From the NCBI GenBank assembly GCA_050948865.1, contig JBMNEQ010000002.1:200161-264160 (forward strand): a stretch of 64,000 nucleotides of DNA, written 5' to 3'. Source of the DNA: Bacilli bacterium (lineage in GTDB: Bacteria; Bacillota_I; Bacilli_A; RF39; UBA660). The notes below the pieces were generated by a model that made no database searches, was not told the origin of the DNA, and saw only the letters and a program-made list of their open reading frames with translations. A program made the position numbers and the translations under genes. Positions 2 through 53,065 of the stretch are shown here, piece after piece (the first letter of the stretch is position 1; every line of letters begins with the position of its first letter).

Positions 2-262
2 AATGCCTTTGAATCTAATGTCAAAATGTTAATTAGGGGTATTGATTATCAACTATTAACTGATCCTGGTTCAGTTACAGTAGGAGATAATTTAGAAAAT
101 GTTGATCGTTTTGGTGGCGATCCAGCCTTATATGATACATTTGAAATTACAAATCTTCAACCAGTAACAGTAACTGTAGTGGCAGCTAGTGGGGGTAATT
201 TTACCGGATGGCAAGCGACAGGAGCAACTTATACAAGTGTTAATGTTCAAGCCATTCCTTAA
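2..262 (+). CDS. Type IV pilin-like protein, 5'-truncated by the window edge
   Basis: Frame is open from base 2 (NAFESNVKMLIRGIDY), nearly identical to the corresponding segment of the pilin at 400..843. Confidence 0.85.
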   Translation, partial: NAFESNVKMLIRGIDYQLLTDPGSVTVGDNLENVDRFGGDPALYDTFEITNLQPVTVTVVAASGGNFTGWQATGATYTSVNVQAIP

Positions 263-843: not shown

Positions 844-963
844 TTAATAAAATAATTATAAAGTTTAATTTAAAACTGTTAACAAGTAATATTGATACAG
901 TTTTAATTTTTTTAAAATATTAACTTTTTGTCACAATTTGACAAAGTTAAATTAATAGAAAAT
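612..963 (+). repeat. 352-bp direct repeat, copy 1 (copy 2 at 2665..3016)
   Basis: Sequence reads identical at an offset of 2053; covers the pilin 2 3' half and downstream intergenic DNA. Confidence 0.9.
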
Positions 964-1013
964 GTCAATAACTTTTGAAAATGTCTCACATTAGATAAAA
1001 AAAATAGTTTGGA

Positions 1014-1149
1014 AAATTTATTCCAATTCCTCCATCAATTCAGGAATCTAGATAATATCCTTTAGTTAGATGGCAATCAAATTTTTAATTTGATTGCCTG
1101 AAACATTACGGATATTATCTCCTAAATTGATGGATTATCTCGGCATAAA
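1014..1149 (-). other. Conserved structured element (putative ncRNA) downstream of the IS1202-like transposase
   Basis: TTTATGCCGAGA...GGAATTGGAATAAATTT termini with nested stems; homologous to 50391..50522. Confidence 0.6.
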
Positions 1150-1155
1150 ACTCGT

Positions 1156-2394
1156 TTATGCATAAACCTTTTCTTTATGAGATTTTTTCATTTGTTTCTC
1201 AAAAGAAGCTCTTTTCCAAGGATGACTCATAGGGGGCACATATTTTTCCTTTTTTATTTCTTCCTGAGGTAGATCAAGTTCTTTTGAAAACCTTTTATTT
1301 CTGGACAGTTCTCTTAACTCATAAATTTTTTCGTCTATACTCACCACTAAATCACCATTAAATGCTTCAATAACTAATGCTTTAGTTTTAGGCCTGAAGC
1401 ATTTTAACTCATTATTAAAATAAGGTAAATAATACTTGTTTTTATATTTAATGGAATTACCTCTATCTATTATTCTTGTTGATAAAACTGCTAAAGTATA
1501 ATTTATTTTTTCTTCACTAGGTGATTTTTCAAATGCACTTGGAAACTTCTTATAATCCATAGCAAAGCGTTTATTATATTTAGGAATAAAAACATTTATT
1601 AAATATTCATTAGCTTTTTCAAGTGTGTGTATTCCGTTTAATTTTAACTCATTAATTAGTCTTCCTTGAAATGTACCGTTAGTACGTTCAATAATTGGTT
1701 TTGCTTCAGGAACACTACTTGTTTTTAAATCAATACCTAGTTGTTTACATGAATAACCATACTGGGTAAGGATATCATTTTCAGATGTTTTTTTATCAGG
1801 GTTTAATTTGTTATAATTGAATACAGTTCTATTATCTGTTTTAAAACTATAAGGAATGCCATAACCTTTTAGGATTTGATATTTGGTTTGATAATAACCC
1901 TTTAAAGTTTCCTGATAGTCAAAATAACCGCCGACAACTGTGTTTGTTGCTTTATCTACAGCTAGATGAAGACATGTTTTAAAATCCCCAAACCATTGGT
2001 GTATTGAACCGTCTTGTTCAATAATTTCTCCGAAGTATTTTGGTTTTTCTTGCCTTGGGTGAGAATCCTCAATTGCTATCTCATTATTAACAATAACTTC
2101 TACTTCTTCTTCAGTTTTACCAGTCAGTAATTTTTCTTTTAACAATTGTTGTTTTCTATATTCCTTTCTAGTTCTTTTACGAGCCCTAGGCGATAAAATA
2201 CCTGCCTTATTTAAAGTATTATAAATAAAATTATAAGAGACCTTTATGTTTTCAACTTCTTCAAGATATTCTTTAAAATGATTAAAATTAAAACCTTGAT
2301 ATTTAATAGTATAAAGTAGTACAATATCATCAGAAAGAGATTTATCGTGTGCTATACTGGGTTTCTTATTTCGCTTGCCATGTACAAAACCAGG
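1156..2394 (-). CDS. IS1202/ISNCY-family transposase; N-terminus disrupted in this sequence
   Basis: FGEIIEQDGS.H.W, LHLAVDKAT, KTDNRTVF, IERTNGTFQGRL, PPMSHPWK. Frame stays open upstream of the ORF-track start to about 2394 (GFVHGKRNKKP). Confidence 0.85.
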   Translation of the reverse strand, partial: PGFVHGKRNKKPSIAHDKSLSDDIVLLYTIKYQGFNFNHFKEYLEEVENIKVSYNFIYNTLNKAGILSPRARKRTRKEYRKQQLLKEKLLTGKTEEEVEVIVNNEIAIEDSHPRQEKPKYFGEIIEQDGSIHQWFGDFKTCLHLAVDKATNTVVGGYFDYQETLKGYYQTKYQILKGYGIPYSFKTDNRTVFNYNKLNPDKKTSENDILTQYGYSCKQLGIDLKTSSVPEAKPIIERTNGTFQGRLINELKLNGIHTLEKANEYLINVFIPKYNKRFAMDYKKFPSAFEKSPSEEKINYTLAVLSTRIIDRGNSIKYKNKYYLPYFNNELKCFRPKTKALVIEAFNGDLVVSIDEKIYELRELSRNKRFSKELDLPQEEIKKEKYVPPMSHPWKRASFEKQMKKSHKEKVYA

Positions 2395-2664
2395 AGGTAC
2401 CGCTTTTTTTATAAATGAATAAAAAGACGATCACTTTAGTAGACTTACTAGCTAAAGATAGTTGTAATGCAACCCGATAATTTTAGCTATAGCCGTTCCT
2501 AGTATCTACTAGGACTTATTAGAAAAACAACGAGAAAACTCGTGTTCATTCATTCTTAATTGTTAACCTGTCTCATTCATAGCACCTCAGTGATATATAA
2601 GAAATTACTTTTGAGATCATCATCAGAGGATAAGCACTTAAGACAGTATCATAAGTTAAGCACT
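2395..2664. other. Chimeric, garbled segment: pilin-2 5' half interleaved with the transposase 5' end (probable consensus artefact)
   Basis: + strand pieces match 400-611 (ATGAATAAAAA, TTTTAGCTATAGC, AGAAAAACAACGAGAAAACTCG); - strand at 2544-2588 reads GAGGTG...ATG AGA CAG GTT..TTA AGA ATG AAT GAA (MRQV.LRMNE). Confidence 0.7.
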
Positions 2665-3074: not shown

Positions 3075-3452
3075 GTGAAGAAAAAGGGATTTACTTTAGT
3101 GGAATTACTCGCGGTCATAGTTATTTTAGCTATAATTTTAGCTATAGCGGTTCCAAGTATTACAAAGTTAATTGAGAATCAAAGAAAAAGTGCTTTTGAA
3201 TCTAGTATTAAATTAATTATTAAAAATTTAGAAGTGAAAATTTTAGGGGATGAAGAATTTGATGTGACAGAAATAGATGAAGACAAATTAGGGGGTTTAG
3301 ATGTTAATCCAGATGATTATAATGAGTTTTCTGCTCAATTAAATGAAGATAACGTTCTAACAGTAACTGCTACTGGAGCGGGTAAATTTGATGGTTGGAA
3401 GGTAGAAAATGCTACTTCTTCTGAAGTTAATGCAACAAAAGTTGAAGGATAA
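3075..3452 (+). CDS. Type IV pilin
   Basis: MKKKG|FTLVELLAVIVILAIILAIAVPSI; AAGGAGG RBS. Confidence 0.9.
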   Translation: MKKKGFTLVELLAVIVILAIILAIAVPSITKLIENQRKSAFESSIKLIIKNLEVKILGDEEFDVTEIDEDKLGGLDVNPDDYNEFSAQLNEDNVLTVTATGAGKFDGWKVENATSSEVNATKVEG

Positions 3453-50245: not shown

Positions 50246-50390
50246 AAATTAAGTATAGCATTTTTCTTTATTCTTGTAAATGTTAAAAGTCTTTTTTGTT
50301 AAATAAAAAGGTAAGTTCCCGCCCAACTACCATATGGGAACTTAGTTGTTGAAATAATTTTTTGGATTCCTTTTAAGGAATTTTTTTGTA

Positions 50391-50522
50391 TTTATGCCGA
50401 GAAAACTTTATTATTTTAGGCAATTCGTGTTAGTCGTAAAAGCGAAAGCGTCTATACGCTTTCCACGACAAAATTAACACGAATTGGGTTCCTAAAATCA
50501 TAAAGGAAATTGGAATAAATTT
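50391..50522 (+). other. Conserved structured element (putative ncRNA) upstream of the IS30 transposase
   Basis: Same termini and stem architecture as 1014..1149 (-). Confidence 0.6.
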
Positions 50523-50822
50523 AAATATAAATTAAAACGTTTATAAAAAAGCGTCTAAATACTTGACTTAAATCCAATCTTTATCAGTAATATCATCTGT
50601 AATAGAACTGTTTTTATTAAGAACCTATTTTTTAAATTCCTAATTCATTATATATAACAAACAAGAAACGAGCAAATTCATATCACTTAATAATTTAGGG
50701 ATTTTAACCATCAAACTTAGTTCATCAATTATTAGAAATGAATTTTACTTTGCTATATTTATTAATTAGTTATATTATATTCTATGTTGGTTTATTTGCC
50801 ATTAATGAAAGGAAGTGTCAAA

Positions 50823-52010
50823 ATGGCAAAATCAAGTTACAATCATCTTACTAAAGAACAAAGAGATGTTATAGAAATTTTAATAAGAAAAAACGTTACA
50901 TTTACTGATATTGGAAAAACAATTGAAAAGGATCGCACCACTATTGCTAAAGAAGTAAAAAGAAATAGATACTCTAAATATTCAAACAACAATGAAAACA
51001 CATCAAATTGTCCTAAACTCAATAAAGTTCCATATGTTTGTAATAATTGTTCAGCCAAAGGAGGATGCTCTAAAAAAAAGCTTTACTATAACGCTAAGAT
51101 AGCATACGATTTATATAAACTTAAACTTCGTACAACAAGAGAAGGCATTGATATCACTCCTCAAGAGATTGAAGAAATAGAAGAAATAATAGTTCCACTT
51201 ATAAAAGATAAAAAACAAAGTGTTAACCAAGTATTTGCAAACCACAAAGACATTCTTTGCATGAGCAAAACAACTTTTTATAAGTACATTGATATTAACG
51301 CTTTGTCTTTAACAAATTTAGATTTACCTAAAAAAGTAAAATACAAAAAAAGGAAATTAAATCAACGTAGAAATAGACGTGAATTAGCTATTCTAAAAAA
51401 TAGAACTTATAACGATTATCTGCTTTTCACAACTATACATCCTAGAATGAACGTTGCCCAAATGGATACTGTTATTGGAAAACAAGGTAATTCAAAAGTA
51501 TTATTAACGCTTTTAATTATTAAAACTAAGTTTATGTTGATTTTTTTATTAGATAAAAATAATATAGCATCAGTAGATGATAAATTTGTATTTTTAAAAG
51601 ACACACTTGGTATTAAGTTATACGCTCAAGTTTTACGGATTATTTTGACCGACAATGGAGGAGAATTTTTCAATCCTGATATGATGGAAAGAGATTATAA
51701 AAACAATAAAAAAATATGTAATGTGTTTTATTGTGATCCTTATCAATCAAATCAAAAAGCAGAAATAGAAAAAAATCACTATTACATCAGAAAGGTTTTT
51801 ACTAAAGGAACATCTTTTGAAAATTTGACTGATGAAACAGTGAAGTTTCTTGAGAATAACATAAACAATACTCCAAGAGTAAGTTTAGATAATAAGACAC
51901 CATATGAATTAACTAAAAAACTTTATCCGAATTTTATAAAAAAATTAAATTGCTCTTACATAAAACCTGATAATGTAACATTTAATCTAAGTGATTATAA
52001 AATTAAATAA
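50823..52010 (+). CDS. IS30-family transposase
   Basis: HLTKEQR..IE HTH, TIAKEVKRN, QMDTVIG, LTDNGGEF, FYCDPY..QKAEIE. Confidence 0.93.
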   Translation: MAKSSYNHLTKEQRDVIEILIRKNVTFTDIGKTIEKDRTTIAKEVKRNRYSKYSNNNENTSNCPKLNKVPYVCNNCSAKGGCSKKKLYYNAKIAYDLYKLKLRTTREGIDITPQEIEEIEEIIVPLIKDKKQSVNQVFANHKDILCMSKTTFYKYIDINALSLTNLDLPKKVKYKKRKLNQRRNRRELAILKNRTYNDYLLFTTIHPRMNVAQMDTVIGKQGNSKVLLTLLIIKTKFMLIFLLDKNNIASVDDKFVFLKDTLGIKLYAQVLRIILTDNGGEFFNPDMMERDYKNNKKICNVFYCDPYQSNQKAEIEKNHYYIRKVFTKGTSFENLTDETVKFLENNINNTPRVSLDNKTPYELTKKLYPNFIKKLNCSYIKPDNVTFNLSDYKIK

Positions 52011-52336
52011 AGTTTTCATTGATGATCATTTTGCTTACAAATGATTGTCAACCAATCACTTAAAAATCTACTATAACTTTAAATGATTGGTTGGCAAATA
52101 ATAGCCAACAACAATTCTTTTTTATTATTCCGATACGGGAACTAAGTCTTAAAATGACCAAGTACGTATCCTTTTTTAGCTGCTATAAATTTATAACATC
52201 GAATATATAGTATCATAATATTGAAAAAAAGACCATCTTTTTAGATTTTAAACACTAAAAAAACTCCCACAAACGAGAACTTTGTAACGAAATTATATTT
52301 TAGCATTCAAACGTGAACTTACTTTTTAATTCAACG

Positions 52337-53065
52337 TTAAAAGTCTTTTTTTCTTTTAAATTCTAAAACTTTAGCGGGCCTTTTTTGTTTTGTTTCTTCT
52401 TTATTTAAATAGTCAAATAAAATTCTTTTAAACATTGCTTTTTTATTTATTTTAGGATGATTTTTAATTTTACTGATTAAAGATAAACTTTTTAATTTTT
52501 CATCTTCTATTTCTTGATTATTCGTGTTAAAACTTTCTAAATATTCATTATAAAGATCCATATCTAATAACAAGTTTTCTACAATTTTAGAACCAACTAT
52601 ATCTTTAACATAAAGAGTTTCATATAGAAAATGAAAATAAATACTATCAGTAGGTTTTAAATTTAAAGTGTTGCCATTAGAATATTTTATTTTAGTTAAA
52701 GTGTTTAAAAAAGCTTTATTATATAATTTTTTATAATTTAGATGAGAAGGAAGTTGTTTAGATATTATATTTAGGTGAAAAAAGACATCATTGTAATATA
52801 AACCAATATCATTTAATTTATATTTAATTGGAGAATCAATTTTTAGAAAACTTAAATATAAAGATAGAATAATTTTATCTTGCTTTTTTAATCTAGTATT
52901 TTCCTCTTCTTTTCTTCTAAAAATATCATTATTTTTAATAATAAATTCTTCACTATAATTATCAATAACAATTATATTATCTTTAATTTTAGAATAGATT
53001 CTCATACTTTCAAAAATAAGATCAGCAGTAGTTTTAGGTAATGTTTTTAAATCTTTATATTCCAT
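52337..53065 (-). CDS. Paralog of the N-domain of the 48587..50053 ATPase, without an AAA module
   Basis: Shared LP..T...IF.SM.I, ILSLYLSFLK, YE.LY motifs and a similar C-terminal tail. Confidence 0.75.
   Translation of the reverse strand: MEYKDLKTLPKTTADLIFESMRIYSKIKDNIIVIDNYSEEFIIKNNDIFRRKEEENTRLKKQDKIILSLYLSFLKIDSPIKYKLNDIGLYYNDVFFHLNIISKQLPSHLNYKKLYNKAFLNTLTKIKYSNGNTLNLKPTDSIYFHFLYETLYVKDIVGSKIVENLLLDMDLYNEYLESFNTNNQEIEDEKLKSLSLISKIKNHPKINKKAMFKRILFDYLNKEETKQKRPAKVLEFKRKKDF

Follow-up and report, generated by a model that had tools for sequence, protein, structure and literature searches.

A hairpin of the plasmid single-strand origin type, carried as a cassette inside insertion sequences of a Bacilli bacterium

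This report concerns a 132-nucleotide (nt) hairpin at positions 50391-50522 of a 64,000-nt stretch of DNA from a Bacilli bacterium (hereafter the window), together with its 136-nt relative at 1014-1149. We are confident that the hairpin is a single-strand origin (sso) of the RSB type. It lies inside an insertion sequence (IS). An earlier note on this DNA had proposed a new structured RNA. The conserved 5′ terminus is instead the RSB motif described in the literature for the single-strand origins of plasmids, which are DNA elements; the hairpin is a known, textbook element of plasmid replication, and its status as a candidate new RNA is explained away. What appears to be undescribed in the literature that we searched is the recurrent, cassette-like residence of such origins inside insertion sequences of several families. 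A paper linking a single-strand origin to the interior of an IS was not found in that literature, which does not show that the link is unpublished. What we observed directly is the identity of the motif, the layout of the hairpin, its covariation, a strand bias in its predicted folding, its presence on plasmids and its position within IS elements.

Identity and architecture of the hairpin

The 12-mer that forms the 5′ terminus of the hairpin has exactly two matches in the window, at 50391-50402 on the forward strand and at 1138-1149 on the reverse strand, where 0.18 would be expected by chance. The 3′ 17-mer also matches twice and nowhere else in the window, at 50506-50522 (forward strand, one mismatch) and at 1014-1030 (reverse strand), with about 0.2 expected by chance. 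We call the hairpin at 50391-50522 type B and the one at 1014-1149, the first copy of the earlier note, type A. Each folds into a single long imperfect hairpin, and the two have a common layout. From the base upward this consists of a closing stem made from the two termini, an internal loop, a helix of about 14 bp ending in AGG/CCU, a bulge on the 3′ side, a further helix and an apical hairpin. The predicted fold of type B has -48.3 kcal/mol with RNA parameters (z -8.2) and -30.9 kcal/mol with DNA parameters (z -8.0); the values for type A are -56.6 (z -8.6) and -30.3 kcal/mol (z -7.5). None of 200 shuffles reached the native stability of either type. The interiors of the two types are unrelated in sequence, and the apex of type B is an 8-bp stem with a CTAT loop. 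Terminus search and folding thus recover what the earlier note had seen by eye, namely shared termini, a shared stem and bulge layout and, in the second copy, a different apex with just this stem and loop.

The sequence at 50391-50402 and in the bases that follow matches the RSB printed for plasmid pSELNU1 (PMC4598088), except for the last 2-3 bases, and it stands at the base of the hairpin. The same paper gives RSB at the hairpin base, together with CS-6 in the loop, as the typical conserved sequences of an sso. RSB is described as lying in the loop-distal part of the sso hairpin and as required for binding of RNA polymerase, while CS-6 in the loop terminates the primer (PMC8860593). RSB is found within palA/ssoA and also in ssoU, ssoT and ssoW; an sso is active in one orientation only, ssoA has about 160 nt, and origins of the ssoA type are host-restricted (PMC5703833). 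As ssoU, ssoT and ssoW also carry RSB (PMC5703833), the motif alone does not fix the subtype. At 132 nt, type B is a long imperfect palindrome within the range of roughly 130-160 nt that folds when single-stranded. Compared with ssoU, ssoT and ssoW, it is presumably the description of ssoA that the single long hairpin of the window copies fits best.

Relatives were sought by exact-pattern scans on the conserved termini. More divergent origins fall outside such a census, and the invariance of the termini among its matches is by construction. Contigs from one genome per species contain at least 113 loci with both termini and metagenome contigs at least 116, and a viral scan gave 2. Four further matches without the full 5′ motif look like chance and were dropped from later counts. 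There are 107 unique sequences among the genome-contig matches listed and 95 among the metagenome matches listed; the taxa among the genome-contig matches listed include Streptococcus, Staphylococcus, Macrococcus (including 2.3-kb plasmids), Bacillus, Erysipelotrichaceae and Clostridia. The conserved termini bracket more than 200 different hairpins, often beside genes for a Mob_Pre relaxase or a Rep protein, and relatives beside rep or mob genes place the hairpin on rolling-circle plasmids. A plasmid collection holds 190 matching records, mostly small plasmids of Staphylococcus and Macrococcus. For example, the 3.9-kb plasmid pDJ91S has its match 88 nt after mobV and also carries a gene for a replication initiator. 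Within the same bacterial family as our genome, two relatives carry the conserved termini around yet other interiors. One of these hairpins lies between a helix-turn-helix (HTH) gene and a weak MobA/VirD2-like relaxase match (below the Pfam cut-off), and the other lies beside a serine recombinase.

The relatives also carry the evidence for the fold and for its strand. In a MAFFT alignment of 105 unique sequences, 10 of the 19 pairs predicted by RNAalifold keep pairing through double changes, one of them occurring as CG 61 times, UA 35 times and AU 7 times. The 9 closing pairs of the consensus are invariant only because the search pattern fixed them. With RNA parameters, the strand that carries RSB folds better than its complement in 103 of the 107 unique sequences among the matches listed from genome contigs (mean -51.0 versus -39.9 kcal/mol), and in type B it is only the RSB strand that forms the closing stem.

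Set against the ssoA/palA origins of the pT181, pE194 and pMV158/pLS1 families and of pSELNU1, our elements are alike in the RSB at the hairpin base, in being imperfect palindromes of 130-150 nt, in a strand bias (predicted from the fold) and in having relatives just after Mob_Pre genes on small plasmids. They differ in that the window cassettes have no exact CS-6 in the terminal loop and are chromosomal, inside an IS and not on a rolling-circle replicon. Single-strand origins are also found on the chromosomally integrated mobile elements ICEBs1 (sso1) and Tn916, which pass through a single-stranded stage. These use a relaxase and rolling-circle replication; IS30 and IS1202 elements have no such gene. 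By way of analogy only, the attC sites of integrons likewise have conserved termini and a variable interior and function as a folded single strand, but the conserved sequences of the cassette are different and there is no integrase.

Two features speak against the identification. An exact CS-6 (TAGCGT/A) is absent from both window cassettes and present in 5 of the 107 unique relatives among the matches listed, 4 of them from Streptococcus. The nearest approach is AAGCGT in the apical stem of type B, and type A has nothing similar. Because the exact CS-6 is missing, we file the cassette as RSB-type and ssoA-like rather than as a strict ssoA, and termination of the primer would therefore need another way. 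The second feature is that type B shows little strand bias once DNA parameters are used, the complement reaching -30.5 kcal/mol against the -30.9 of the RSB strand.

Could the hairpin act as RNA after all, be it on the transposase message, as a stabiliser of an untranslated region or an insulator against read-through, or in trans, as a small regulatory RNA? We consider this improbable. Both window cassettes lie on the transposase sense strand and would be transcribed if there were read-through, and G-U pairs stabilise the fold of the sense RNA. However, the same module is a DNA origin on plasmids that have no transposase, and other IS groups hold it antisense to the transposase gene, on its 5′ or its 3′ side. 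The hairpin of the IS that hosts type B is not followed by a U-run, and an Rfam scan of both IS regions with E up to 10 returned only chance-level microRNA and snoRNA matches, far below gathering scores. That the module can precede or follow the transposase gene, in either orientation, also upholds the argument, made in the earlier note from two copies, against a simple terminator or operator.

Residence inside insertion sequences and exchange between them

The window belongs to an assembly of 975 kb in 4 contigs, with 26% G+C and a completeness of 94.5%. This genome has 11 RSB hairpins, all of them inside insertion sequences: seven identical copies of type A and four copies of type B, one of which has a single substitution. 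Each type stands at a fixed place in a multi-copy IS, and the element is therefore IS-borne, as had been proposed. A T-to-G change at position 50412 was seen in one genomic type-B copy (contig C1) and in contigs of two runs from different studies.

The two window cassettes are carried by two unrelated IS families, which we call IS-B and IS-A (Table 1), and not by IS30 twice. Type B sits 5′ of an IS30 transposase as the earlier note had stated, with the open reading frame (ORF) starting 261 nt downstream on the same strand. Type A had also been placed next to an IS30 transposase, on its 3′ side; its actual neighbour is a transposase of the ISNCY/IS1202 type (NF033594).

In IS-B, 93 nt separate the left end from the start of the sso, which has the same orientation as the transposase gene. 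The genomic copies are colinear with 99.6% identity across about 2041 bp, and the boundaries are also visible in contigs of other samples, which break at 50295-50298 and 52336-52339. All 4 copies have their own target duplication, of 14-16 bp. The transposase, the terminal repeats of about 24 bp and the target duplications make IS-B a member of the IS30 family, although its 15-bp duplication in the window is long compared with the 2-3 bp usual for IS30. Contigs from digester, landfill and bioreactor samples, sequenced in 14 studies, contain the element with hardly any change.

IS-A occurs 7 times in the genome and has 1677 bp where intact. Its sso stops 51 bp short of the right end, downstream of an ISNCY-type transposase gene and on the sense strand of that gene. 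The window copy has 96.8% identity to the other genomic copies and about 25 extra bases, and the NF033594 score of its ORF (248.1 bits against a cut-off of 250) is that of a truncated copy, not of the intact 465-aa ORF. Target duplications of 26-27 bp were found at 6 of the 7 copies. We place IS-A in the IS1202 subgroup because these duplications fit its definition, in which the direct repeats have 27-28 bp (preprint 10.1101/2022.12.17.520857).

The two carriers are not isolated cases. The nearest ORF on each side of 112 hairpins was collected and clustered, and the representatives, and then 150 of the 152 neighbours within 400 nt, were compared with Pfam. Each neighbour tally holds the 25 commonest families, and rarer families could be hidden. 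About 32 of the 112 hairpins abut a transposase gene, and the families concerned are given in Table 1. Plasmid-type neighbours are Mob_Pre (8 of 150), Rep_1, REP_ORF2-G2P, serine recombinases and an MvaI/BcnI restriction enzyme (5). The metagenome census, with 115 neighbours of 110 hairpins listed, gave Mob_Pre 10, IstB (IS21) 7, rve and HTH_38 (IS3/IS30) 6 each, rolling-circle Rep 6, IS256 2 and IS110 1. All of these counts hold among the matches listed.

Some smaller observations came out of the same census. At five loci (L027, L050, L064, L083 and L112) the sso lies 70-330 nt from a gene for an MvaI/BcnI-family restriction endonuclease, and there is one more such case in the metagenome set. 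Three metagenome contigs (L261, L269 and L273) have two sso matches each, on one strand and 1.6-3.5 kb apart; these could be tandem plasmid assemblies or two IS copies. At L074 the sso stands 45 nt upstream of a gene for TnpB (OrfB_IS605/Cas12f-like; 204-1502), on the same strand. IS200/IS605 elements move as single strands.

In the IS3, IS30, IS110 and IS1202-type elements the hairpin lies inside the IS and does not merely adjoin it, at 50-140 bp from the IS end. The 9 loci of the IS3 group are colinear from -1245 to +54..62 around the sso, the 3 loci of IS110 from -1413..-1457 to +125..142, and the 7 loci of a second IS30 group from -57..-89 to about +1227. Relatives of IS1202 have their terminal repeats 43-79 bp beyond the sso at 3 of 3 testable loci. 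An inverted-repeat search gave no significant ends for most of the IS3-group loci or for IS110, and their boundaries were taken instead from colinear homology.

The position of the cassette can be occupied in different ways. In IS1202-type relatives there is a cargo slot between the stop codon of the transposase and a conserved right end of about 60 bp. The slot is empty in distant relatives (L142, L144, L146 and L156), and in closer ones it holds an RSB origin, a different long hairpin or unrelated sequence. By way of example, L141 has a hairpin of about 130 nt without RSB, L140 a short hairpin, and L139 about 150 nt resembling a small ORF. The type-A cassette shares 75-81% identity with the cassette of a group from the unrelated IS3 family, across exactly the length of the cassette; the similarity between the families is confined to positions 1490-1626 of the 1677 of IS-A. 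Within one IS3 lineage (74-92% nucleotide identity), two unrelated sso cassettes occupy one position (L047, L089 and L117 versus L017, L022, L059, L062, L118 and L127), which points to cassette replacement. Contigs of other samples diverge from IS-B at 50391 and 50521. The conserved termini are likely crossover points, a view that draws on the history of RSB as a recombination site, described as promoting cointegrates (PMC5703833). The sso is an accessory, passed between mobile elements as an interchangeable cassette, and not a core part of either IS lineage. The similarity across IS families, confined as it is to the module, also sustains the idea, already put forward for the two window copies, of a self-contained unit whose base stays constant while its interior varies.

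A fixed scaffold around a changing interior is reminiscent of a guide, and the earlier note had raised a guide function. Apical or loop sequences would then base-pair to the target site or to the ends of the IS, in the manner of IS110 bridge RNAs. The note had seen no convincing match of the apical sequences to the target sites by eye, and the computation agrees. No stretch of the variable parts matches the IS ends or target flanks over more than 7-9 nt on either strand, and 246-295 of 300 shuffles did equally well. Moreover, insertions with the same cassette type are found at 7 or 4 different targets, and closely related cassettes occur in unrelated IS families. We regard a guide function as highly improbable.

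Sharp module boundaries and many contexts might equally suggest an independent miniature inverted-repeat transposable element (MITE) that inserted into both IS elements, which the earlier note had named as an outcome that would overturn its reading. No target duplication or direct repeat was seen flanking the module in IS-A or IS-B, and the interiors of the two types differ almost completely, unlike copies of one MITE. It is very unlikely that the module is such an element.

Possible roles of an origin inside an insertion sequence

On balance we favour the reading that the hairpin of IS-B is a palA/ssoA-like DNA origin, a discrete cassette in an IS30-family element, which recruits RNA polymerase to prime the second strand on single-stranded intermediates of the IS or of its vehicle, and we think it reasonably likely that the cassette still works as an origin within the IS. 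The strand reading TTTATGCCGAGA... would, once single-stranded, fold into the long hairpin. Host RNA polymerase would bind its conserved base, in which RSB is paired with the conserved 3′ terminus, and synthesise a short RNA primer within the hairpin. This primer would be extended into the complementary strand first by DNA polymerase I and later by the replicase. The host encodes DNA polymerase I (polA). Binding and priming by RNA polymerase are carried over from the plasmid literature; what use the cassette could be to an IS is inferred.

One tentative proposal is that the cassette takes part in copy-out/paste-in transposition, where it would use host RNA polymerase to prime synthesis opposite an IS strand that has been circularised or displaced. 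In this way a figure-eight, or an intermediate that is single-stranded, would become a double-stranded circle, whose end-to-end junction drives integration, and at least six IS families would have repeatedly captured plasmid origins and exchanged them as cassettes. In copy-out/paste-in transposition of IS256, host replication converts the figure-eight into a double-stranded circle (PMC7780238). IS30 uses copy-out/paste-in (PMC9333248), and circles have been reported for a member of the IS1202 family (preprint 10.1101/2022.12.17.520857). All the IS families in which the cassette was found are known, or suspected, to form circles or junctions, which speaks for such a role. Where the ends were mapped, the cassette is near an IS end and thus near the circle junction. 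Like the copy-out/paste-in elements (IS911/IS3, IS30, IS256/ISCth4 and IS21), IS-B has terminal repeats and a target duplication, and the right ends of IS-A and IS-B carry outward -35-like hexamers as do elements with a junction promoter. For these families, the literature searched gave no account of a single-strand origin within the element. In IS3, IS1202 and IS110 the cassette is at the 3′ end of the transposase-sense strand, which is also its active strand. For ISCth4, use of the right end as donor results in circularisation of the transposase-sense strand (PMC7780238). A cassette at the 3′ end of the circularised strand would be exposed last. On plasmids the sso is likewise exposed last.

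A second proposal, which we hold to be possible though doubtful, is that the IS serves as the vehicle of a portable, host-adapted origin, which it donates to the rolling-circle plasmid or conjugative element that it enters. Such an origin would improve the replication of the entered element, and the IS would gain a ride.

A number of findings weigh against these roles. Some come from a search for transposase homologues irrespective of the hairpin in 399 genomes of the class. Homologues of the IS1202 type occur in 46 genomes, and an sso was found in 1 of the 20 loci that have at least 150 nt downstream (24 were examined, of which 4 run off the contig, and 5 fragmentary matches were left out). 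For homologues of the IS30 type, in 39 genomes, RSB was found in 0 of 29 loci. A cassette this sporadic is unlikely to be an essential part of transposition. The geometry is not uniform either. In both IS30 groups the cassette lies close to the 5′ end of the active strand, and the same holds, judged only by the orientation of the neighbouring gene, for IS256 and 3 of 4 IS21 loci. The second IS30 group, IS256 and 3 of 4 IS21 loci have it on the strand opposite to the transposase gene. The list of circle-forming families is weak evidence by itself, since the majority of bacterial IS families use copy-out/paste-in (PMC7780238). As to the vehicle, searches of this assembly (94.5% complete) for Rep_1, Rep_trans, Rep_OBD and Mob_Pre genes gave nothing and no resident vehicle is apparent, although the blank for Rep_1 is weak, as the model matched no control genome, and small plasmids are easily missed in such assemblies. 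A search for an end-to-end circle junction in the contigs of 4 runs gave none, and is neutral because contigs drop rare forms; what these contigs did contain were IS boundaries and further sso hairpins.

The main rival is that the cassettes are hitchhikers. On this explanation sso hairpins recombine between mobile elements at their conserved termini and are neutral or weakly useful; they land in tolerant non-coding slots near IS ends and persist because the IS copies are young. We see this as a real but minor possibility. The sporadic distribution among homologous IS is what it would predict, as are the differing or missing cargo of the IS1202-type slot, the sharing of the type-A cassette with an unrelated IS3-family group and the two cassettes at one place within the IS3 group. 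The role of RSB as a cointegrate-promoting site supplies a route, and the genomic copies, being identical or nearly so, are uninformative on selection. On the other hand, two independent censuses place the cassette in six or more IS families, close to an IS end wherever ends were mapped, and its hairpin and strand bias are intact. In addition, no other IS of the genome reaches the copy numbers of IS-A (7) and IS-B (4), and both carry the cassette. The other transposase repeats, with 2-3 copies (IS1634-like, IS110-like and a second IS30-like, classed by eye), have no RSB hairpin at their coordinates. This last comparison is anecdotal.

If the origin does act in transposition, it would name the so far unspecified host step from the figure-eight to the double-stranded circle, and would tie the priming of the lagging strand in rolling-circle replication to IS biology. 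If the vehicle is the right picture, the cassette would be a portable host-range module. The presence of an sso inside an IS suggests a testable link between rolling-circle priming and transposition, and the test is cheap under either role.

Three other ideas about the origin were tried and set aside. The absence of PriA, as a reason for keeping an origin primed by RNA polymerase, is ruled out by the presence of priA (662 bits). A single-strand promoter for the transposase conflicts, we infer, with the geometry: RNA templated by the active strand would be antisense in IS-B and, in both IS30 groups, would head for the near IS end. Finally, linear single-stranded DNA taken up by transformation (comEC is present) seems an unlikely substrate unless it is circular, because priming near one end cannot make both IS ends double-stranded.

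Features of the window and minor observations

The coordinates of the cassettes and of their carriers are collected in Table 1, together with the IS families of the neighbour census.

Table 1. Cassettes and carrier elements in the window, and IS families with an adjoining single-strand origin in other genomes
Feature	Position	Strand	Remarks
sso cassette type B	50391..50522	+	132 nt; termini, fold and RSB as in PMC4598088; four near-identical genomic copies
RSB motif of type B	50391-50402		
Pairing partner of type B	within 50506-50522		
Apical hairpin of type B	~50444-50463		
sso cassette type A (first copy)	1014..1149	-	136 nt; termini, fold; seven identical genomic copies
IS-B, IS30-family insertion sequence	50298..52336	+	2039 bp; 4 genomic copies
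IS-B left terminal inverted repeat	50298..50321	+	~20/24 positions match the reverse complement of 52312-52336
IS-B right terminal inverted repeat	52312..52336	+	ends in -35-like TTCAAC
IS-B target-site duplication, left copy	50283..50297	.	15 bp; recurs at 52337-52351
IS-B target-site duplication, right copy	52337..52351	.	junction reading
IS30-family transposase gene	50784..52010	+	408 aa; HTH_38; NF033563 87.1 bits, cut-off 80
IS-A, IS1202-subgroup (ISNCY) element, degenerate window copy	963..2664	-	left end approximate
ISNCY-family transposase ORF, truncated	1156..2145	-	329 aa; 465 aa in intact copies
IS3 family OrfB	9 loci listed		sso starts 9-15 nt past the stop codon in 8 loci, same strand
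IS30-like	9 loci listed		7 convergent, 0-5 nt from the stop
ISNCY	4 loci listed		sso 7-12 nt past the stop, same strand
IS21 IstB	4 loci listed		3 convergent, 1 same strand
IS110	3 loci listed		sso 2 nt past the stop, same strand
IS256 (Transposase_mut)	2 loci listed		convergent

Both carriers insert directly 3′ of a -35-like hexamer. At 4 of 4 IS-B sites (at one of them as TGTAAA) and at 4-5 of 6 intact IS-A sites, the duplicated target follows TTGTCAA, TGTCAA, GGTCAA or TTGCAA; the IS-B site of the window takes up 50270-50297 and 52337-52351. The ends of the elements themselves carry outward -35-like hexamers, TTGACA in IS-A and TTCAAC in IS-B, and an insertion therefore restores a -35 at the same distance from the duplicated DNA. 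In one contig of run X20, IS-B is inserted 17 nt beyond the right end of IS-A.

The 3′ non-coding part of IS-B contains a second, weaker hairpin at 52015-52125, with a DNA fold of about -15.6 kcal/mol (z about -3.6), for which Rfam gave chance-level microRNA matches. The IS copies are surrounded by many paralogous genes with a prepilin-type N-terminus (type IV pilin-like or competence-pilin-like), found in the window at 2-262, 400-843 and 3075-3452.

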